From contig OZ287086.1 of assembly GCA_965645245.1 (NCBI GenBank), positions 744,001-808,000 of the forward strand: a DNA stretch of 64,000 bases, given 5' to 3'. Source of the stretch: Massalongia carnosa. Lineage: Eukaryota. The notes beneath the pieces were generated by a model that worked only from the letters and a program-made list of their open reading frames with translations, was not told the DNA's origin and did no database searches. Shown piece by piece: positions 3,688-21,300 of this stretch. How positions within the stretch are numbered: position 1 is the stretch's first letter; each line of letters opens with the position of its first letter. The position numbers and the translations under genes are program-made.

Positions 3688-4469
3688 TAAGCACATCCGC
3701 AAGGCAAGAGATCAACCTTATCTAAGCCTAACGGAATATTCTCGCCCTTAGGCATCTCCTGCATTCGTTTTAAACGAGCTCATCAGTAACAGATATCATC
3801 ATTTATAACGAACTCATACCTTTTGTGACCGATAACATCCATGACATCGGGCATAGCCCGGATTCTGTCTCCAGAATTTCGCCCGTAGCCCTTCTTCGCC
3901 CTCGGTTTCCTCTGGTTTTGCCCCAGGACCCCAACGTGTCTTATAAGCATTTATTCGTCTTCATTAATAACGAGTCAGTTTAAAACGAACTCATTTCATA
4001 CAATAATATATACTTCTTTTCTGAAGGCTTCTTGTGTTTCGCTTGTTCGAGCTCTATTTTTATTTTCTGTCTTCGATAACCGCAGCATTATGTTTAGAAG
4101 ACATGAGTTTGTTATGTGATTATAAGAAAAATTGGTTGCAAGTTTACGAAGCGAGAGTCATTTGAAACGAGTTTGATTAAGGCCCCGTTTGTATACAGCG
4201 TAGATAGCTCGCTTCCTCCGGTAATTTTCGACGTTACGGCATACACTTTTGGTGGTGTTGTGTCCGCCATTACCGGCATTTTGGGACCAATTGTACGATT
4301 CTACTCTTGAGGCCGTTTTTTTGGGCCATTGCCTCCTACGCAGAGGATTGTAACGATATACAGTTCAATCAAGGAATCGGCGCAATGCGTCAAGTCTCTA
4401 CGGCGAGTAATGGATGGAGCAACTGCTCGATCAGCGCTATACGAATCGATCTACGACAACCTTCGCATG

Positions 4470-4713
4470 GATCGAGAGACGACATCTTCGCTGTCTCTAC
4501 GTTCGACCTACAGTTCAGCTACATTCTTGCTAGATGGGAGGGCTCTGCGCATAATGCGCTAGTCCTTAAGGATGCCGTCTCCTATCATGGATTGAGGCTC
4601 CCTACAGGGAAGTACATCCTTGCGGACGCTGGATACTCTAATACGGAGCACACCTTGGTGCCGTTTCGGGGCACGAGGTATTATCTCATGGAGCAAAGGC
4701 TGGCTGGAGAAAG
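4470..4713 (+). pseudogene. PIF/Harbinger DDE transposase fragment
   Basis: FDLQFSYILARWEGSAHNALVL...YILADAGY...LVPFRGTRYYL matches the Harbinger/HARBI1 pattern (GWEGSAHD, YLADAGY, PYRGVRYHL). It is followed by a GTAAGA intron donor at 4714. Confidence 0.8.
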
Positions 4714-4951
4714 GTAAGATCTACAGTCTATTTGAATGGTACTAATAAGGCTTCAGGTCTACGAGATCCAACGATCAGCTTGTTACCTTCTCCACTCTTA
4801 TGATACAATGGAAAAGCTTGATAGTAAACGATCCTGCACCTGAGAGCAATGCAGTTAAATATCATTTCCTAAACAGTGCTCCTGATATTTTGAGCTCTTT
4901 TCACCGCTGAATATCAGACCTCGATACAGATAAGACTCGAGACGGACCAGC

Positions 4952-5037
4952 CTACACCATCGGTCCTCCTCCTTCTACACCATCGGTCCTCCTCCTTCTA
5001 CATCATCGGTCCTCCTCCTTCTACACCATCGGTCCTC
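4952..5037 (+). repeat. 23-bp minisatellite CTACACCATCGGTCCTCCTCCTT x~3.7
   Basis: Direct reading. Units start at 4952, 4975, 4998 and 5021. Confidence 0.95.
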
Positions 5038-5222
5038 ACCACGGAGACGCCAAAGGCCTCACCGTGGGGCGACCGTCAAACATAGATTTGCTCCTATCTC
5101 TTCGCATCAAAACAATGCTAATTTAACGCGTTCTCACGCGTCGCAGACGTAAGTACGGAAGAGGATACGAAAGCCAACCGCCGGGGGGTAGAATGCGCGC
5201 CTCCCTGTACCATGCTTCTAAG

Positions 5223-5957
5223 GGTTCAAGTCCCTTCTTGCAGTCATCAGCTAGAAGAAGATGTGGACCAAAGGAGCCGCATCATCCCCCACCCGGGCAC
5301 AGTCGACACGCGTTCTAGCTCCTGAGAGTTCAAGTTTCCCTATGCAGTCATCAGCTAGGATCAACAGAACGCGTAAAGGCACCGGGGCGAATGCTGTCAC
5401 CTCAAGAAAACTCTATCTCGGAGCAGAATAACAATATCCCATTTAATAGGCCCGGCCTGTTAAATAAAATCGAGGAAAACAAAGTCACAAAACACATAGT
5501 CATCAATCACACGTTGTACAAAGCACACAGTCACAAAGCACACATCACAAAGCACACAGTCACAAACATACAGTCACAAACAAACAGGGACAAAACACAC
5601 AGTCACAAAAAACACAGTCACAAAAAACACAGTCACAAATCAATAACACGTCCCTGTGAAGTGGGTTCTGCGGGGGCTCGTTAAGACAGATCTGCACCCG
5701 TTAATATCGGAGTACATATTTTTAGAGGTTCAAGTCCTTTCTAGCAGGCATCAGCTGAAAATAATGTATTTTGACACGGACATGGTATGGATTTGACACG
5801 GGTAGACCTCGATGGATCACAAAACGAATGAAAAGAGTTCAGCGGAACTTCGTTAATATTGTTCTCGAAGACCTCGTTAATAAGATTTTCATAGACCTCG
5901 TTAACAACGTTCGGTCATACTCTTAAAGGTTCAAGTCCATTCATACAGTCATCGGCT
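5223..5957 (+). promoter_or_regulatory. Four dispersed bipartite motifs GGTTCAAGTCC-N6-GCAGTCATCAGCT (B-box-like first half)
   Basis: Copies at 5223-5252, 5327-5356, 5727-5756 and 5928-5957 with identical spacing. The repeat is certain; the function is inferred. Confidence 0.6.
5521..5639 (+). repeat. ~15-bp imperfect tandem repeat (AAAACACAGTCACAA)n
   Basis: Direct reading, about 8 units. Confidence 0.85.
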
Positions 5958-7081
5958 GAGAGCTAAAGACGTACGACACGTGTCAGCTATGTCTATTACA
6001 CGGGTCTCCTTCGTCTACAACACGGAGCCCTCCGGCTGAAAGAAATAAACATATAGACACATAGTGTAGGGTCACACCCTACACGATACAAGGGATTTGG
6101 GTTATGAAAATCATCCGTTTGATGGCTACCGTGAGCAACACGGCCCGAACCGGAGTCGTACCGGGGATGGTGGAGGCAACCTAGTCATCAAATAGGACAC
6201 CCTTGGGACAAAAAGAGGGCAATATACGAGGAACCCGTTAATTGATAACAGTCTAGGCCCTGAGCTAATAGACGAATTTCAAACGAGCACCCCTCCGAGT
6301 TGTCCTCGACTCGTTTTGGTAAGAAGGGACGGAAAATCGATACTATACTGCCTGGTCATGAGCATAGTGGTCGAAATCCCCGCGAGACATTGTCGGTTCA
6401 TAAACGGGAGACCTTTATGAATAACGCGAAGTGGGCGTAAAAAACCTGTGAGGCGTGGTATGCAATGGCGGCCACAGTACGGAGACCCTCTGCATAGCCC
6501 GAGAGGACAGTATGCGCATGTCGGTATATATAGAGCAGGGAATATCTATCTCACGCGTAACGAGACCCCGTCGGTTCGCCAGCGCATGGGCTACGGCTAG
6601 ACTCGCCCTTGATATATGCTTAAGGAGTAAACTGGGTTTGACCAAGGCGAAAGGGACGTCGTTTACCCCAATCGTAGAATTCATCAATAGTCTTGGGCCA
6701 TAAAACGCACCAGTGAGATGAACGAAAACTGGGATAGAGACTTCACGAAGGAGATGTCAACTCTATTTTATCATTCTTAGCCCCGAGATATCAACTGCAC
6801 ATCATATATAGTGCTGGGCGTATAGAGGAAAGACTTAGTCTCATCGTTTCAATTACGATCATAAACTTGTCGCGAAAATGACTACACTCGAACAAACAAA
6901 CGCACTCTCGAGAGCGCACAGTGAAAGGAGCGAATGTTTACACGTAAAGATCAAGGAGTATCTTGATCGAGTGGGCACCGTTGGTGACCCGGAGGCATTG
7001 CAGTTGCTGAGAAACTCAGCGGACATTTTGCAAGCGCAAAATCTAGTCGTTACAAAGTTGCAGAAACTCCCAACAACATAG

Positions 7082-9837
7082 TATGGTGGGGCGACATGTG
7101 TCATCTATGGTCAGGTGACATGGCAAGCCTGTGTGTGTATAAAACGGGTTTTTTGCTGGTGTTTTCTTCATTATCTCCGGACATCAATTTTCTATCACCT
7201 ACGCTGTCATCATAATCGTCGTGTCACGTAGTCATCGACACACGTTAATTTCGTGCATCAACTAGTCGCTCAGTCGTTCAGTCGTCTAGTTCTTTTCATG
7301 TCTATGCAGTCGTAGGTCCATTCAGACGTTTGTGTGTGTATGTGTGTTTACTGCTCAGTTCGCCATCTATCATCACCTACCACCACCTTCTATTAGCACG
7401 CACGACTACCCTTCTCCATTGGTGACCACGGTGCGATATATGATTGTACTGGTGCAATTGAGCGGTTGAACTGAGCATCAAACGTCGAAAAACCTCCTTG
7501 TTTTGCACCTCTGATCACTCTGACTACTCTACCTCCGACCGTGCACGACCGTGTCCTTCAGCACCGAATAGAGCAACATGGCCCCCATCAGCTTCTTTAC
7601 TACCGCTATCGCTTCCGTCACCATCCCAGCACCGACTGCATGCGTTTTAGACGTACATTCCAGGAACTATCTAATCATTCTATTCACTGCACTGATGGCC
7701 ATATCCTCGTGCATTACCTTCTGCATTTGGGCAAATGCGACCGTGTCCGAGAGTACTAGACCGACCTCACCTACTCCACTACGATCAAATCGAGCACGTC
7801 AACGACAGCGACACCATAATCGAGCGAAACGTGGTAGGCCTACCAAAAGAGCCTCCGTTTCTGCCTCCGAGTCGTCTGAGTCGTCCGAGTCGTTCGAGTC
7901 GTCCACTTCCACGTCCACCACTAGTGCACCAACCTCTAGCACTAGTGCATCTCCATCTACATCTTCATATTTATCTGCTTCTTCTTCTTCACCCAGCGCA
8001 CCTATGAGCAAGCGACAGCGACGTCATCTGCCGAGACAGCGCCGGTCCATCTCCGTGTCGAGGGCATCGTCTGTCAGTTCATCAGCACCGTCAGTGTCAT
8101 CATCAACTGCCTCGGTTGCATCGACAAGGTCATATATGAGCATGGAGGAATTGTTTGCGAAATATAGGGCACAAAATGCCTATGTGGCCCATATAGACTG
8201 TCCAGAATCGCTGTCTATTTGTCCAACAGTCGCCGTGTCACCACCGGTCACCATATCTGCACCGTCTGCACCGTTCATGTCTGCACCGTCCACCGCACCA
8301 CCGTCTCCCGCCACCGCTTTTCGTTCTGCCGTGTCTTCGGCACCTGTCCTCACCACTATCGAGTCAGCTGACACTGAGTCGGCAATTGAGTCATCTACAC
8401 GTGGGCCGGAAGGGCCAAAATCAACATCATTTCATTCAGCCTCTGAGGTCAATGTGGAGCTAGCTATGGCCGGACGCCTTCCGGACGTCAGCTAGGTCGA
8501 AATTGACGACTATATAGCACCTTCCCGTTCATTATCACCATTGCGTTCAGCATCACCGTCCCCTTCAGCGTCATCATTCGTCATTCAATGGCCTTTGTTT
8601 CGTCAAATATCGAAGAATATCTGTCTACTTTGCCTCTCATTCAGTCATCTATCTCCCGTCTGGCACTGGGATTTTTATATTTGCAGGCCTCCACCTGGAT
8701 AGTTCCTATGTGTCGACTGTCCAGTCTTCCCCTTTCGGACGCCCTATGTTAACTAGCAGGTGCTGATAACACGAAAATATTGCTGCACACTGTCGTGGGT
8801 CGAGAGATTTTGACCGAATTGCTGACGAAAGTGAAAGAAATTCTCGCACGGTCAAGTTCATCTTCAGCTAGTGCCACCGTGTCAGCCAATCGAGTGAGGT
8901 CGCTTCCACCTTCATGTAGGTCAGGGCCATGGCATTCAGACCGAGCTAGGCACGCACGGGCTAGACGTGCAAAACGTACGCGCTGGACACTACCTGCACC
9001 TCCGGTTTCATATTTTTCCACTCCATTTGACAGGCCCGGCCTATCTAATAAGTCACCGTTAGCACATCCGTCGTTATCATAAGCCCTACCAGCTGCACCA
9101 CCGGTTGATGCCTTGCCATTACCTTAAACGGTCACGCCTTCAACATTTGAGGCCTATCGGGCGCGCGGTGCGTTCATTCCGCCTCAGGCTACTCCATGCA
9201 GTCGTCCGGATCACCGTCAACAGACCCATCAGTCAGTCAACAACGATTTATTCAGTTCGTGTCCACCCCCGAGGGCTGGCAGGCAATAGTGACGATGATG
9301 GAGGCTATTCAGCAGCGGATAGGGGTCGATGTGAGTCGTGTTTTTCACATGTGAAGTGATCATGTGAGCTGTGATTGACCCGCAGGGCAGACTATTGAGG
9401 CGGACAGACTAGAGGCGAGGCGAGGGCTCAGAGACGAGTTCTGATTGGTCAGGAGAGGTGAGCTGGCGGAGTGTTGACAGATGCCAGGGGACGGCATCTA
9501 ATGAAGAAGGGTAGTCGTGCGTGCTAATAGAAGGTGGTAGTACGTGATGATAGATGGCGAACTGAGCAGTGAACACACACACATACACAAACGTCTGAAT
9601 GGACCTACGACTGCATAGATATGAAAAGAACTAGACGACTGAACGACTGAACGACTAGTTGATGCACGAAATGAACGTGTGTCGATGACTACGTTAAACG
9701 ACGATGATGATGACAGGATAGGTGATAGAAGATGATGTCCGGAGATGATGAAGAAAACGCCAGCAAAAAACCCGTTTTATCCCCACACAGGCTTGCTATG
9801 TCACCTGACCATAGATGACACATGTCGCCCCACCACA
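7082..9837. mobile_element. Unclassified element with ~340-bp inverted terminal repeats, T(A/G)TGG..CCACA ends and 4-bp TSD
   Basis: 7082-7420 is the reverse complement of 9500-9837 (about 93% by eye). ATAG is duplicated at 7078-7081 and 9838-9841. Host ORF1 is continuous across the site. Confidence 0.88.
7578..8495 (+). CDS. Ser/Arg-rich hypothetical protein inside the inverted-repeat element
   Basis: 305-aa ORF with an N-terminal hydrophobic segment, basic patches and Ser/Thr runs. The frame stays open past the TAG to ~8702. Low complexity, so coding status is uncertain. Confidence 0.45.
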   Translation: MAPISFFTTAIASVTIPAPTACVLDVHSRNYLIILFTALMAISSCITFCIWANATVSESTRPTSPTPLRSNRARQRQRHHNRAKRGRPTKRASVSASESSESSESFESSTSTSTTSAPTSSTSASPSTSSYLSASSSSPSAPMSKRQRRHLPRQRRSISVSRASSVSSSAPSVSSSTASVASTRSYMSMEELFAKYRAQNAYVAHIDCPESLSICPTVAVSPPVTISAPSAPFMSAPSTAPPSPATAFRSAVSSAPVLTTIESADTESAIESSTRGPEGPKSTSFHSASEVNVELAMAGRLPDVS

Positions 9838-11119
9838 ATAGGTGACACATTACAGGCAATTCAACAATCATTGACACGCATAGAGCGCAACAAGACCACT
9901 CCTCGCAGCTATGCCGCTGCTGCCACAAGGCAAGGCCGAGATGAGCCCGCACCCCTAAAGAACCAAAACGTCAAGCCTCAACAGGCCCGCAAAGCCAAAG
10001 CACCCACACCAAGACAAGAGCGACGTGCCTGGGAAATCACCGTTCACATCACGGAGGATGCGGACAAGGAAAAAATGAAGCTAATGCCAACCAAGGAGTT
10101 ATTAGAAACACTACAAAATGGAGCTGAAGGAATAAGGGTAGTGTCGTGTTTGTTAAACGGCGACATCAGGATTCACGCAGAGTCATTGGAGGCAAAGAAG
10201 ACCCTGCAGGAGAAGACCGATTGGACCCGCATGGTGGCCGCCTCAGCTGCGGTGCACACCCGCACCTTCACCGTAAGAGCGAATGTAATCAGGGTAGAAA
10301 ACATCAAAGTGGCCAATCAATCAACAGCTTTCACATACCTTCAGGCCGATAACGGACGCCTGCACCCTAACCTGAAGATCGTCAAAGTAGCCTGGTCAAT
10401 CAAGGCCATTACAGAGAAAAAAGCGTACTTGACGCTCATATAGAGGTCGCCACCGCCGAGATGGCTAACCGGCTCATCACCGAGGGCCTAATGGAAAGCT
10501 ACGAAATAAAGGACTGCGAGCGCTTCACACGTGGTTGCACCATGACTCAATGCTTCAACTGCCAAAAATACGGACACATCGGTAGAGCATGCCGCAGTCC
10601 CGCCGCCTGTGGTCACTGGGCCGGTGGACATCAAAGCAAAGAATGCAATCTGGAGACAACGGGGCAATACCGCCGTTGCGCCGTATGCGGAGAGAAGGGA
10701 CACGAAGCATGGTCCACAGCATGCAAAGGCAGATTAGCTGAAAAGCGAAAAACTGAAATAGCAATGCAAAACCGCGCCCCCCTCTATGCAATCGAATCAC
10801 AGCCGCCCTCATTTCAATTTCAACTTCTACGAGAGTCGACACCCACAGTCACACAAACGGACGAAATTCCGTCAACGTGGAAGATAGTAAACGGCAAGAA
10901 AAGAAAAACACACAACGCTACGCCCTCATCCGGCACACCCCCGGGCCCTCATCGGGGAGACGACGCACCTACCTGGGCTAATATAGGCATCATGAATCCT
11001 GAAAATAAGGTAAAGGCCTTAGCAAAACCAGTGCTGGGTAGGCCTCGTGCAGATCCCGTAGCATTAACGACAAAAACTCAGGTCACATCGAACACAGCGG
11101 CCGAAACGATGGAAATCCT

Positions 11120-14100
11120 ATGAGGGACACGAAATCCCTCTCTATATTGCAGTATAATGTCAGAAATGACAGAGTGAGTACTATGATACCCCTCTTAACA
11201 GACACAAACACCCAGGACTTTGATATTATTGCAATACAGGAACCGTGGCGCAATCTATCCGCCCCCACATCGGTTAGTTCTCATCAAAGCGGCTTTCACC
11301 TCCTATACCGCCCAGGAGGTGACACCAGAGTGTGCTTTTATGTCAACGACCTAATAGACACTGACAGCTGGGAGGTGGAATTCACCTCGGCCGACATGTG
11401 CACTTTGAAACTAAAGACCTACACCGAAGGCGTTATGGAGAAAATTCACGTCCATAATGTGTATAACCCCTCTCCCGCTTCCTATTTATCCACTGACTGT
11501 CCTACGACCTTACCGGCGGCTTGGAGCATGCTTACCGCCGATGCGCATCACATACTACTTAGAGATTTCAACCTGCATCATCCCTTTTGGAATGGTCCCT
11601 CAAGACCCATACAACACGCTGCTGATGATCAATTACTAGAAATAATCGATGATCATAATCTTTCGTTGACACTGCCGAAAGGCACCGTAACATGGGAAGC
11701 AAGAAAAACGTCTAGCACGATAGATTTAGTTTTCATGTCAGAATACCTAGGCGAAAGACTCTAACACTGCATGTCCAGACCAGAATTGAATCAATCGTCC
11801 GATCACGTGCCGATATCAACCCGCATCTTACTCGGAAGCGAGCCGCAACCGAAAATCAAAGGGAGAGCATGGAAACTTCTAAACCTGGAAAAATTTAGGG
11901 AGGCCGAACGACACGCCCCTATACCGGAGTCTTCCCGTACCACTGCCGAGATTGATACGTACACGGAATCGATTCAAAAATTTCTACAAAATTTCATCAA
12001 ACGAAGCAGTTCCATGGGCAAAATCTAGCGAATATGCTAAGCCATTCTGGACAGAAGAATGCAGCATTGCCACCAAAGCCACGAGGAAACTACGCCGCAT
12101 ATGGTCCAGCACGTTAGACCTAACGGACTAGTCTAATTATATGAAATCCAATAATAAAAAACAGAAAATAATTCAAAAGACAAAGAGAACAAACGTTTGT
12201 GAAGAAATCAATAAGGCTACCGAAACGCCTCAGGGACTATGGCGGCTAGCGAAATGGGCCAAAGACAAAACTCATCAATCTAGAGAAGTATCCAAAATGC
12301 CGATGCTAAAATTCAATGACCAAGTAGAAGACACGTTTGACCAAAAAGCCGAAATTCTGAAAGGTGTCTTCTTTCCCGCACCACCACCGGCCAACCTAAG
12401 CGACATAGAAGGATCCTTCTATCCTACATCGCCGCACTGCCCAATAATCATCACCAAGTCAGAAGTATCGACGGCCCTGAGTCGGCTCAAGTCCGGTAAG
12501 GCACCGGGCCCAGACGGCATATCTAACGGAATACTCAAAGCATGCAGCGAAATACTTGTCGAACTACTCACACCTCTGTTTTAGGCGTGCGTCACACACT
12601 CGTACCACCCGCGGGCCTTCAAAATGGCAAACACAATAGCGCTGAAAAAAATAGGCAAAGGAGACTATACCACGCCGAAAGCCTACCGACCAATTGCACT
12701 GCTCAACACGCTCAGTAAAGTTATGGAATCCATCATTGGATCGAAAATAACATATCTGGCGGAAAAACACCGGCTCCTACCCGATACACAGATGGGAGCA
12801 AGGAAGGGCAGATCCACAGAGTCAGCACTGAAACTGCTAACTGAACAGGTTCACACGATTTGGGGACAGGGAAAAGACAAAGTTGCCACACTGCTAAGTA
12901 TGGACGTCGCCGGCGCGTTCGATACGGTATCACATCAACATCTAACGCACAACCTACGGAAAAGAAAAATTCCAAAATGGTTCACTAACTGGTTAAACAG
13001 CTTTCTGAGCGATCGAAGCACCACTTTAGCAATAAATCGAAAAGTCACTGGGAGGTTTGCGGTAAGAACGGGTATCCCGCAGGGCTCTCCACTGTCATCT
13101 ATTCTTTACCTATTTTACAATGCAGATCTATTGGAAATATGTGATCGACCAGGCAAAAACACAAGTGCCATAGGATTCGTAGACGACGCAAACATTTTTG
13201 CATATAGAAAAAGCACCGAGGAAAACTGCAAAACTCTAGAGGCAATACACAGACAATATGAGACGTGGGCTTCCCGGCTCGGGTCCGTATTCGCTCCGAC
13301 GAAGTACGAACTCATACACTTGTCCAGAAATCCCAAAAGATTCAACATGACCGCATCAATCAATATTGTTACCACCGAAATTGAACCTAAAATAGACATC
13401 AGAGTATTGGGCCTACAAATCGACACCAAATTGAAATGGGGACCGCACGTTCGCATAACGCAAGAGAAAATAGTCAAACAATCCATGGCATTGACAAAAA
13501 TTTCCACATCAACCTGGGGTGCCACCTTCGCCAAGGCAAGGCAGGTTTACAGTACCGTGGTGCGTCCGGCCATGACATATGGGTCAACCGTATGGCACAT
13601 GCCCAAAGAAGTCAAAAAGTCGAAAACGTCAACGAGCAAGCTCTCCGTCATGCAAAACAATTGCCTTCGCACTATAGCCGGTGCCTTTAAAGCCACTCCC
13701 ATCTCAGTACTAGAAGCAGAGATATTCATAGAGCCCATAGATACGCATCTCGACATGCTACAAGCACAGGCAAGGCACCGGCTCCGAGCCGGAGGCCAAT
13801 TGAAGATCATCTCCTCCGCATGCAACAAAATAGATGACAAACTTCGAGGCAAGGCAGGTCGCAAACGACTTCAAAACCCCACCCGGGAGAGCTGAAACAC
13901 ATCTGGGCCAAAAGCCTACTGATCGACTCAAAAATAGTTCAACCACCAAAGGCACACCTACTATGGTTCGAAGTCTACCCGGCGTGGCACCGCGAAGCTA
14001 CCGTTGCGGTAACTGCCCGACACAAGTATATGCAAACAATCAAAGCACGACAAATAAATGTCTGGAACGACTCGTTGTACGTATATCAAAATCGCGTCAT

Positions 14101-14471
14101 CGAACCCTCTATAGCATAATCAGTCCCACTGAGCAAAAAACGGCTGAAAATAAACCCAGCTAAAAAAGGCAGAAAGCGCTCTAACAACTCAAATCCGCAC
14201 TGGCGAGATCGGGTTAGCTGACTTCCTCTACAAGCGATGGGTGCCCTCCGTCACCTCACCGGCCTGCTCATGTGGCTGGCACAGACAAACTCCAGAACAT
14301 GTAATCATGTTCTGCAGACTTATTGACAATAGAGAACAGATGTTTCGCGCCGCCGGCACGAGCGACTATCAGCAGCTGACCAAATCATCAAAAACTCTAA
14401 AGATACTAACTGCTTGGCTAATGAAAACATGCTTATTGAATCAATTCTCACTAGCATCAACATTATTATAA
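11120..14471 (+). pseudogene. LINE A1 ORF2: AP endonuclease + reverse transcriptase + C-terminal Cys/His motif (no RNase H)
   Basis: ILQYNV, IAIQEPW, DFNLHH, SDH; KAPGPDG, YRPIALL, GIPQGSPLS, FVDD; SPACSCG..QTPEHVIMFC. Several stops and frameshifts. Confidence 0.93.
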
Positions 14472-18389: not shown

Positions 18390-21300
18390 TTTTTATTATT
18401 TTATTGATTCATTAAGTGTATTCAAACTAAGGTTATGACAGAAAACTATTTTAAGGTATGTTTTTATTTTACAAAATAAATCAACCCTTAATAACCCAAC
18501 TATGTATCGTAAATATTGCCCAGTTTTTACTCCGTGTTAGTAACAACCTTTAGTAATCGATATATCGATTTTACAATTTGTTTTTGTAAATCTCGTGAAT
18601 ATTCCAGCATAAATAATTTCTAACTTTACTGTTCGATCTCTCCCCAACCTCCCGTTTCGATATTTTCGTCATCGAGCTGACCTAGCATCCATTTTCTAGT
18701 CGCGATTTGGTTATCAATAATATATTTAATTAAAATATTATTTCCGATCCTAGTATTAAAAAAGATTTTTGAAGTAATTGTGGTATCGATATTTTGTTTC
18801 ATATTTAGGATTTCATTGGAATAATGTATGCAATTCATCAATAAGCGTTCTGGCGTTTGACGTTCGTTGCAGCGCCCTGTGCATTTTGACGAATTATAAT
18901 CTTTCAATCGGTGCAGATATGATCGAAAATAACCGTGTCCGAATTTCATTTGCATAATAGTCGCAAATATCAATTTCGAACAATTATTCGACAGATAATA
19001 AAAACTCGATTTGCCCGGCTGCATTTCGAATTTCTCATAATATTTGCCTTTTGACTTGCATTGTTGCCATTGATTCGCCCATGTGTCTAACATATTTCGA
19101 TTTATTTGACCCTTTACATAATCAAATGTTATTTTCGAAGACTCGACTAGGATTCGACTAAGTCCCGCTTTTGCTGCTTTATCTGCAATTTCATTTTCGA
19201 CGATTTTCGAATGACTAGGAATCCATTGTAGAACCACCTGATAATTGTTTCCGAATAAGCATTTCGAGAATTTTCGAATTTGTTTTGCGTAAGTATGATT
19301 TGTCAAGTTCTGAATTTCGTTTATCGCGTTTATACTATCGGAAAAAATCCAAATCGTTTTTTCCAAATTGGAGTGAATATTTGCAATTATCAATTTGTAT
19401 GCCCATTTTATTGCTTGTAGTATCGCATACAGTTCAGCGTTTTTAATGATTGACTGTTTGTGTAATTTCCAGCTTTTCGAAATCATATGATGTTTGAGGA
19501 GACAATCTTTTTCGATAAAACGATTGAAGTTATCGGTGAAATTGTTCCAATTTCGCATAATTGGTGCAATGTGACAGCGGAAGTTGAAAACTCGGTTTTT
19601 GATCCATCGGTATAGGGTAACACTAGCGATTTATCGGCGTTTATTGATTGAATTTTTGATAAAGTCGAATAATAACTTGACTTTACTGTTTCATTTGATT
19701 TTTCGATTTGGAACTTGATTTTACAAGACGGCTTCCATGGTTTGATGAAATTATTTACTGATTCGAATTCATCAGTTTTGTGAACTATATCCGAAACGGA
19801 ATGAAGAATACGGATAAGCTGAATAGGATGAGATTTAATCGATTTTTTCTCGTCTTCGTTCCATTCAGCATATCTGTTGTTCCATAAACTAGTGTCAAAA
19901 CCGATGTTTTCGAATTTCACCGAATAGGTACTGGGAATTCTTTGACAAATAGGATTATTTTCGGCAATCTTCAATAATCGAATTGCGTATTTTTGATTTT
20001 TTATCAACAATCGTAGCTTGGCTGGTAAAATATGCGATTCAATTTCCATCGCCTGAACAGGCGTGCTTTTGAATGTGCCTAAAATCTTTCGAATCATTCG
20101 ATTTTGCAGATTCTGAAATAGCTTTTCATATTTCTTTTGACCGTTATACCAGATTTCTGAGCCATAGTCCGAAATAGGAATAATGCATGACAAATAGAGC
20201 TGTCTGTATGCAGTTGGCTTTAGTCCCCATTTAGACTTCATAAAATTTTGAATTGCGAAAAACGATCGATTTGCAGAAGCAATTCGTGTTCCGACGTGTT
20301 TTTCGTAATTTAGTTTTCGGTCTAACCAGATTCCTAACAATTTGACAGAATTTTTCGGTTCTAGAATTGTCCCGTTTGGTAATTGCACTTTGTCTTTTGA
20401 TGCATTTCTTGACTTTCCGAAGTGAATCTACACAGATTTGTCGTCATCAAATTTGACATTATTCGTTGCGGCCCAATAAAAAGCTGTTTTGACGATAATT
20501 TCGATTTCTTTGCAATTCTGTTTGGCAGTTTTATTTTCGACATATATTGCAACATCTTCTATAAAGCTAGGTGAATGAGCAATGAATTTCATTCGTATTT
20601 TCGGAAATAAATAACGAATATAAATCAGAAATAGAATTGGCGAAATTGGTGAATCTTGTGGAATTCAAGATTCGATATAGTACGTTTTACTTTTGTATTC
20701 ATCGAATATCAAATTGATCGATCGTTTTGTCATAAAATGCTTGACCCATTGAATAACTATGCGAGATAAATGCAGCTTTTTCATGACATTTAGCAATTGA
20801 TTAATCGAAAAAACGTCAAATGCTCCTTTGATATCGAGTAATAGACATGATAAAACGTTTTTGTTTCGGTTTGAGATTTCGATATCATGAACGACGTTTA
20901 TTACCGCTCGATTGCAGAATGATTTTTGCGTCCGCCCATTTGTTCGGTATCTAACAAGCTAGAATTTTCGCCGAGGTAGGCGAGTCGATTAGCAACTATT
21001 TTCTACGCAATTTTACCAAGAAAATTCAGTAGTGTAATAATTCGATCTGATTTTGGCAGCGAGTAGTCTGGTTTATTAGGTTTTTTTAAAACTGCACAGA
21101 GTCCTGTTCGCCAGCATGACGGGTGATAACAGATTTGTATAAATTAAGAATAAATAGTAAAAAACACGTTTTTCAATGGTTGAAACGGGCCTACTTCGGC
21201 GAAAATTCGAATTTATTAGACATCGAACAGATGGGCGGACGCAAAAATCACTCTGCAATTGACGCAGTAATGACCGTCGTTCATGATATCGAAATAGCGA

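Follow-up and report, generated by a model that had tools for sequence, protein, structure and literature searches.

Nonautonomous retroelements without a pol gene, such as the TRIM and LARD elements, are mobilized by Ty3/Gypsy elements, and pairs of autonomous and nonautonomous long terminal repeat (LTR) elements have been noted in fungi in passages of PMC3248453. In this report, we describe an insertion at positions 7082–9837 of a 64,000-nucleotide stretch of the Massalongia carnosa genome (G000:C20:744001–808000, hereafter the window) that interrupts a long interspersed nuclear element (LINE) and terminates in two LTRs of inverted orientation. This element is most likely a one-off, dead-end copy of an ordinary nonautonomous Gypsy-type family. 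The family resembles the TRIM and LARD elements in its direct TG...CA LTRs, tRNA primer binding site (PBS), polypurine tract (PPT), target site duplications (TSDs), solo LTRs, and lack of pol, and also in the cis signals that it has in common with an autonomous element. It differs from them in carrying a 654-aa orphan open reading frame (ORF), and the copy in the window differs further in having an inverted 3′ LTR and no PPT.

Complex LTR insertions attributed to template switching are described for 2 of 400 Triticeae insertions in passages of Sabot and Schulman (2007; PMC1950507). As we interpret the window element, it is similar to these complexes in its origin from an aberrant cDNA formed before integration, its normal insertion by an integrase, its intact TSD, and its rarity. 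The Triticeae complexes contain three LTRs and have normal U3/U5 outer ends, whereas the window element has U3 at both outer ends, one of its LTRs in inverted orientation, and an unprocessed U5 dinucleotide at its inner junction. The junctions of HIV-1 2-LTR circles keep the terminal dinucleotides of both cDNA ends, and the joining of an unprocessed end to internal sequence is also reported in passages of PMC5618025. The likeness to such circles is in the repair-type joining of unprocessed ends with the terminal dinucleotides kept; however, the circles join U5 to U3 and are unintegrated, whereas the joints proposed here are U5-to-internal and U5-to-U5 in linear molecules that integrated. The Ginger1 and Ginger2 DNA transposons, for which Bao et al. 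propose in passages of PMC2836005 a “reverse evolution” of Ginger1 from Gypsy, share with the window element TGT termini, a 4-bp TSD, inverted ends, and Gypsy-type integrase chemistry. The Ginger features TGTNR and a 4-bp TSD are both present here (TGTGG and ATAG), but Gypsy elements have both too. Moreover, the passages on Ginger describe terminal inverted repeats (TIRs) of ~40–300 bp, multiple inverted copies, and a transposase that is either its own or borrowed, whereas the window element exists in a single copy, ends in LTRs, and has a partner that bears a reverse transcriptase (RT). DIRS-1, as described in part of PMC7192593, is also a retroelement with inverted long terminal repeats; it has an internal complementary region and a tyrosine recombinase, whereas the window element has no such region, an rve-type integrase in its partner, and a TSD. 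The window element is neither a Ginger nor a DIRS element. No integrated inverted-LTR copy with a TSD is described in the literature searched, from which subscription papers were mostly absent and to which older retrovirology may hold precedents, and the passages of PMC12789967, PMC5027509, PMC13570524, PMC4079214, and PMC5014426 contain nothing on such copies.

The interrupted LINE, which we take to be Tad1-like, begins in the left flank with its 5′ end and the start of ORF1 (6781–7081, plus strand; 94–97% identical to other LINE copies, some of which begin at 6781). It continues on the right at 9838–14471 (plus strand) as ORF1 (zf-CCHC) and ORF2 (endonuclease and RT), where zf-CCHC, Exo_endo_phos_2, and RVT_1 are recognized by Pfam and the ORF pieces reach 14471. 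The left arm of the element (7082–7418, plus strand) is a 5′ LTR (U3-R-U5) in the normal orientation that ends in CA and is 90–95% identical to full-length LTR matches throughout the genome. The right arm (9502–9837, minus strand) is an inverted LTR with U5 inward and U3 outward. The two arms were determined to be 336–337 bp in length and to differ at 21 of 336 aligned bases (93.8% identical), in good agreement with the ~340-bp termini of ~93% identity described in an earlier, sequence-only reading of this locus. The outer ends read TAT on the left and ACA on the right, also as described; the intact arm begins with TGTGG, and the TG-to-TA change at the left end is found at the start of 5 of the 64 other LTRs. 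The sequence ATAG flanks the arms at 7078–7081 and 9838–9841 (both plus strand) and fits the 4-bp target preference of the LTR family. Because ATAG is single, with all host bases kept, in 13 of 13 uninterrupted LINE copies (the best 13 of the 39 nonself host-LINE matches listed), and because the empty joint of 7077 to 9838 was found in the contig pieces from all four public runs compared (one labeled as a lichen metagenome), the clean ATAG duplication within LINE ORF1 that had been noted earlier is real and occurred without loss of host sequence. Among the public runs listed as matching this DNA, none is of RNA. The absence of an RT or transposase was likewise borne out, as no Pfam family, whether of RT, integrase, or transposase, was found at the cutoff in the four internal frames scanned. 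The only internal complementarity to the termini consists of 9–10-bp chance matches (E of 0.17 or worse), and Rfam returned one chance-level match (E of 0.45). DIRS elements are not known to produce an integrase-type TSD.

The arm is a true LTR of a nonautonomous Gypsy-type family. In searches of the genome (52 Mb in 25 contigs), 41 matches to the arm were obtained from the 40 candidates scored of 91, and 43 matches to the interior. The family unit is ~2.95 kb and is composed of an LTR, the primer site TTGGCGACC, the interior, a short G-rich PPT block, and a second LTR in direct orientation. Among 66 full-length LTRs that were aligned, 12 direct pairs enclose the interior, and their TSDs are identical 4-bp sequences in eight cases, match at three of four positions in one, and are discordant in three. 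For the solo LTRs, the 4-bp TSD is identical in 26 of 32, matches at three of four positions in five, and is discordant in one. A pattern for the sequence that precedes the PPT gave 34 matches in the genome, 17 from this family and 17 from the autonomous partner and other Gypsy families. The internal 3′ ends of the family continue into the PPT and a direct LTR in 16 of 17 cases, and an inverted LTR is found only in the window copy. The suggestion of a two-U3-ended LTR retroelement, integrated within a single TSD, is upheld, but a TIR-like family is not, with the inverted arrangement in 1 of 17. It had also been envisaged that the repeat might occur elsewhere only in direct orientation, the inverted form being a unique rearrangement. 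The direct orientation in 16 of 17 and the single internal-plus-inverted copy agree with this, but the form is not fully unique because an independent insertion on contig C7 has U3 at both outer ends. The TATAAAA previously pointed out in the left arm is present at 7138–7144 (plus strand) as a variant of the family word GATAAAA; the base before ATAAAAC is T in 2 of the 66 LTRs and G in 60, and the word is absent in 4. It is a private mutation rather than a conserved TATA box.

In the normal copies, a hairpin is followed by 16 bp (the PPT and TA) and then by U3. In the window copy, this hairpin (AGATGCC-AGGGGAC-GGCATCT; 9479–9499, plus strand), whose final base is the breakpoint, is followed by AA (9500–9501) and the reverse complement of U5, and the 16-bp PPT region is gone. 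On the other (minus) strand, the LTR ends with CA-TT, and no microhomology is present at the join. The intact 5′ LTRs all read CA-T-TGG (that is, CA-TT-GG), a spacing that would correspond to that of HIV, and by this analogy CA-TT would be the expected unprocessed right end of the linear cDNA. A join made by the integrase would have dropped the TT.

A second junction of this type was found on contig C7 (G000:C7:2351190–2351864; L031:3191–3865, where L numbers label individual genome loci), where two LTRs of the same family are fused U5-to-U5 (CATT joined to AAT) with U3 outward. The target, GTGG, occurs once in each of the 9 LINE copies examined, and its duplication at this insertion reads GTGG/GTAG. 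The CA+TT (+2) end is present twice at this junction, and the insertion folds as a near-perfect 330-bp hairpin. Five subfamily alleles of the left arm are absent from the right arm, and therefore two different cDNAs were joined. In the loci fetched, which cover part of the genome, 62 distinct non-PPT U3 flanks were counted; as four of these belong to the window and C7 insertions, U3 is found at both ends in 2 of ~60 insertions inspected, some of which duplicate one another. No circle-type U5–U3 or U3–U3 junctions were found among the 86 U3-pattern matches or among the 100 of 129 and 100 of 136 U5-pattern matches listed. An outward-facing autonomous pair on C10 was considered as one aberrant unit and rejected, since its left LTR has its own GTAG/GTAG TSD. 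The apparent aberrant ends at C22:1239399 and C4:3043516 (“CA-TTAG”) are solo LTRs with the TSD CTAG/TTAG. C9:1957368 and four other candidate places were without an LTR match, and one candidate is a normal solo LTR. In addition, a young nonautonomous copy at G000:C8:2172912–2172945 (L078:1413–1446) follows 13 bp of autonomous U5 end in inverted orientation; its flanks are discordant (GTAG/GCAT), and it is probably a nested insertion with later recombination.

The CA of the left arm is followed by TTGGTGACCACGG at 7419–7431. This had been read as a PBS-like site of the tRNA-Trp type; the site itself is confirmed, but the primer is tRNA-Arg(UCG). The family PBS is perfectly complementary to the final 15 nucleotides of the tRNA-Arg(UCG) gene at G000:C14:1695229–1695304 together with CCA, with 18 of 18 matches in the family and 17 of 18 in the window copy, where a spacer T and the 18-nucleotide PBS with one C-to-T change occupy 7419–7437 (plus strand). 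The same PBS is found, with 19 of 19 positions identical to the small family, in an autonomous Gypsy element of 8.3 kb (L051; C1:1064398–1072734) that has 324-bp LTRs of 99.7% identity and the TSD ATAT. Its 960-aa ORF1 includes a protease-like domain (E of 1e-4, below the Pfam cutoff), and its 1191-aa ORF includes RVT_1, RT_RNaseH, Integrase_H2C2, and rve in that order (rve below the cutoff). L051 further shares with the small family the U5 end (17 of 18), the hairpin core (19 of 19), and a 4-bp TSD, and no other similarity of the interiors was found at an E of 1e-5. Because of these common cis signals, L051 likely supplies the proteins that mobilize the small family, as its probable autonomous partner. 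The proposal of a nonautonomous element moved by a Gypsy- or Ginger-type integrase holds for its nonautonomous nature and for Gypsy but not for Ginger; an RT is present in the one coding element found to bear these cis signals, although no search was aimed at an RT-less Ginger transposase. No chromodomain was found in the L051 pol or among the 120 of 361 homologs listed, and the partner may be a Ylt1-like (nonchromovirus) fungal Gypsy element. Filamentous-ascomycete relatives are among the few named homologs of the retroelements of this genome.

A 2188-aa chromovirus ORF near the LTR fragment L036 was also considered as the partner and was rejected as an independent nested element with 208-bp LTRs of its own. 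A multicopy unit of ~99% identity contains a truncated copy of the family (G000:C21:15000–25000, C18:1746000–1756000, and C11:135000–145000; L034–L036), and the C21 copy of this unit holds the nested chromovirus, with identical 208-bp LTRs and the 2188-aa ORF. Autonomous copies in opposite orientations on C4 (L053, L055, and L056; G000:C4:2702559–2713664 and C4:2754219–2762830) have reciprocally swapped TSDs, GTAT/CTGC and CTGC/GTAT, which suggests an inversion of ~40–50 kb by recombination between two autonomous copies.

Immediately ahead of the PPT, several Gypsy families that are otherwise unlike one another have kept the 19-nucleotide core of the hairpin (window 9479–9499; L054 and L103–L107), that of the autonomous partner among them. 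The outer pair is A-U, U-A, or C-G across seven sequences, two of which are from the same family, and the hairpin is supported by this conservation and by the one covarying pair in the seven sequences. The window segment folds no better than its shuffles (z of −0.39); the segment of the partner does fold better than its own (z of −4.17). The hairpin is a candidate cis signal for packaging or for plus-strand priming.

We consider it probable that a cDNA with two U3 ends, formed by joining after a stall or break, was integrated to give the window element. In this mechanism, the rearrangement would have occurred in the cDNA before integration. Either plus-strand synthesis would have stalled or the DNA would have broken at the PPT primer site, and the broken end would then have been joined, by end-joining or by a jump of the RT, to an unprocessed U5 end. 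The donor of this U5 end may have been the duplex of the element's own 3′ LTR, turned around, or a sister cDNA, the rest of which later collapsed to a solo LTR. The integrase of the partner would have taken both U3 ends and inserted the molecule normally. The U5-to-U5 fusion on C7 would be the intermolecular version of the same accident. The window copy lacks the PPT and the direct 3′ LTR needed for another round, and because the PPT and the direct 3′ R region are absent it cannot retrotranspose again; nothing inside it excises DNA.

The interior differs from a young copy by 53 substitutions in ~2,070 bases and the host LINE from its majority sequence by 49 in 1900, or ~2.6% each. If the arms were identical at insertion, ~17 differences in 336 would therefore be expected at that drift; the 21 observed are about twice the 2.6% drift and within the range of 0–29 for the 12 ordinary pairs. 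The arms have three non-majority alleles in common, one of which occurs in no other LTR, and such doubletons are found in 56 of 2211 LTR pairs. The divergence and the shared alleles give moderate support, short of proof, to arms that were born together.

Several observations weigh against the origin proposed above. This integrase is presumed to have used two U3 ends, for which no citable passage was found in the literature searched. The inverted junction is known from the window assembly alone, and none of the contig pieces listed from the four public runs crosses 9499/9500. Of the three alleles behind the signal for a common donor of the arms, one is a doubleton and two are commoner, and for the left arm an unrelated LTR gives a slightly higher score. 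Finally, a minus-oriented solo LTR of the same family is present at the identical ATAG in another LINE copy (C8:1570251–1570714; L135:4252–4715); an 8-bp unit within it has expanded to ~19 copies. The right flanks of the window and C8 insertions share four rare alleles in ~510 bp, the most among 325 LINE pairs (the next highest being two), but no such allele is shared over the 1200 bp that follow, within the left flank, or at 646 sites of the upstream repeat.

The C8 locus brings in a different explanation, in which a plus-oriented copy at ATAG was broken near the hairpin after insertion, and a paralogous LINE with a minus-oriented copy at the same site (that on C8 or an ancestor of it) served as the template for repair of the right end. 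The LINE flank, the 5′ LTR of the minus copy, and two nucleotides of its PBS would have been copied in and then end-joined, and the TSD would look intact because both insertions had duplicated the same ATAG. The existence of the C8 LTR at the identical site is what such a chimera calls for, the confinement of the four rare alleles to the first ~510 bp of the right flank resembles a conversion tract, and ectopic exchange is common in this genome, as judged from the discordant TSDs of 3 of 12 nonautonomous pairs and of several autonomous copies, two of them reciprocal. However, the C8 LTR lacks two of the three alleles that unite the window arms, and the alleles that link it to the right arm are two widespread ones (9 and 12 carriers) and none that is private. 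The copying would also have had to halt by chance exactly at CA+TT with no microhomology, and the C7 insertion is left unexplained. Furthermore, reuse of the site is plausible on target preference alone. Seven insertions are found in this LINE, and by a matrix built from 29 sites the LINE has ~110–250 effective sites of 5029, with the window site at 21–95 times background. Reuse of the same ATAG without any link between the two loci is thus plausible, and the shared flank alleles could come from later conversion between two loci that were already similar. We regard the chimera as unlikely, though it is the strongest of the rival explanations.

Less probable still are two successive insertions of opposite orientation into the same ATAG followed by deletion of the center of the palindrome, or inversion of the 3′ LTR in place. 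Long palindromes are unstable, the site is a favored target, and nested insertions into LTRs occur in this genome. However, the end of the deletion would have to fall exactly two nucleotides into the PBS, and on both sides at C7, and an inversion in place neither supplies the TT nor removes exactly the PPT. An artifact of assembly that joined two repeat copies is very improbable. Two of the public contig pieces stop at 9499, none spans the junction, and run X1 has the normal PPT joint; but the runs may be from other strains, as they differ at many private sites of the window, and rare variants are dropped from their contigs. Private alleles are found in each arm and each flank, the TSD corresponds to the empty site, and the base at which the junction lies makes sense mechanistically. 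We give the least credence to a reading in which inverted termini are the normal form, whether of a nonautonomous DNA transposon (Ginger-like or another TIR type) or of a DIRS-like element. Despite the TGT...ACA ends, the 4-bp TSD, a size near that of Ginger, and a family target preference close to the RTATAY given for Ginger2 in a passage of PMC2836005, the inverted form has one copy, its “TIR” takes the form of a direct LTR in 16 of the 17 copies, no internal complementary region is present, and the PBS and PPT are functional retroelement signals common to the RT-bearing partner.

The interior of the window copy contains a decayed cargo ORF (7578–9354, plus strand) with four stops, two frameshifts, and a 162-bp in-frame deletion. 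In young copies (for example, L074:2652–4616), the ORF is 654 aa from the ATG, is rich in Ser, Ala, and Pro, and has an N-terminal hydrophobic stretch; it is open in 4 of 13 copies, with the reference L074 counted and the window excluded. No match was found in Pfam up to an E of 10 or in the Atlas, residues 340–500 gave 0 matches, and the best BLASTP alignment with ORF1 of the partner scored 28 bits in low-complexity sequence. Among 1.84 billion representatives, there is one match, of 92% identity, which is taken as a family member. The description of this cargo as gag-like is therefore unsupported, as it has no relative in Pfam, in the Atlas, or outside the family and no credible likeness to the gag of the partner. 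Pairwise pN/pS values against one young copy are 0.45–1.09 in the 12 comparisons with synonymous changes, which are non-independent and point to weak constraint on the ORF. Most indels relative to L074 keep the frame, with a total of 80 against 22 in 13 comparisons that are likewise not independent.

Elsewhere in the window, an unassigned 1.8-kb repeat at 4952–6783 opens with a 23-bp tandem array and has a fixed end; at three loci it lies immediately ahead of the 5′ end of the LINE or close to it. A weak DDE_Tnp_4 (Harbinger-like) transposase fragment is present at 4208–4717 (E of 7.5e-05, below the cutoff), and at 18390–64000 copies of an AT-rich repeat family are densely nested in both orientations, with ORFs that look LINE-like by eye.

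The window copy is immobile and probably without function, and the finding is a mechanistic curiosity, a new structural form of an ordinary Gypsy-type family rather than a new transposon system. Copies of this kind mimic Ginger or other TIR elements and DIRS elements, which is a warning to annotators. A broader proposal, which we offer tentatively and which may well prove wrong, is that this Gypsy system regularly (2 of ~60 insertions) integrates end-joined U3/U3 cDNAs and so turns an LTR element into a TIR-shaped, TSD-flanked unit in one step. The resulting hairpin or convergent-promoter loci could trigger silencing of the family, and such fossils, missed by LTR finders that rely on direct repeats, might be the missing intermediate from Gypsy to Ginger. 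If the proposed origin is correct, two germline fossils keep the unprocessed U5 end of a cDNA, and a Gypsy integrase would have accepted U3/U3 substrates in vivo. Inverted LTRs with one TSD and an inner CA-NN junction would then provide a searchable signature for gauging the end-joining of retrotransposon cDNA, and these insertions would represent a concrete route from an LTR to an inverted-repeat architecture.

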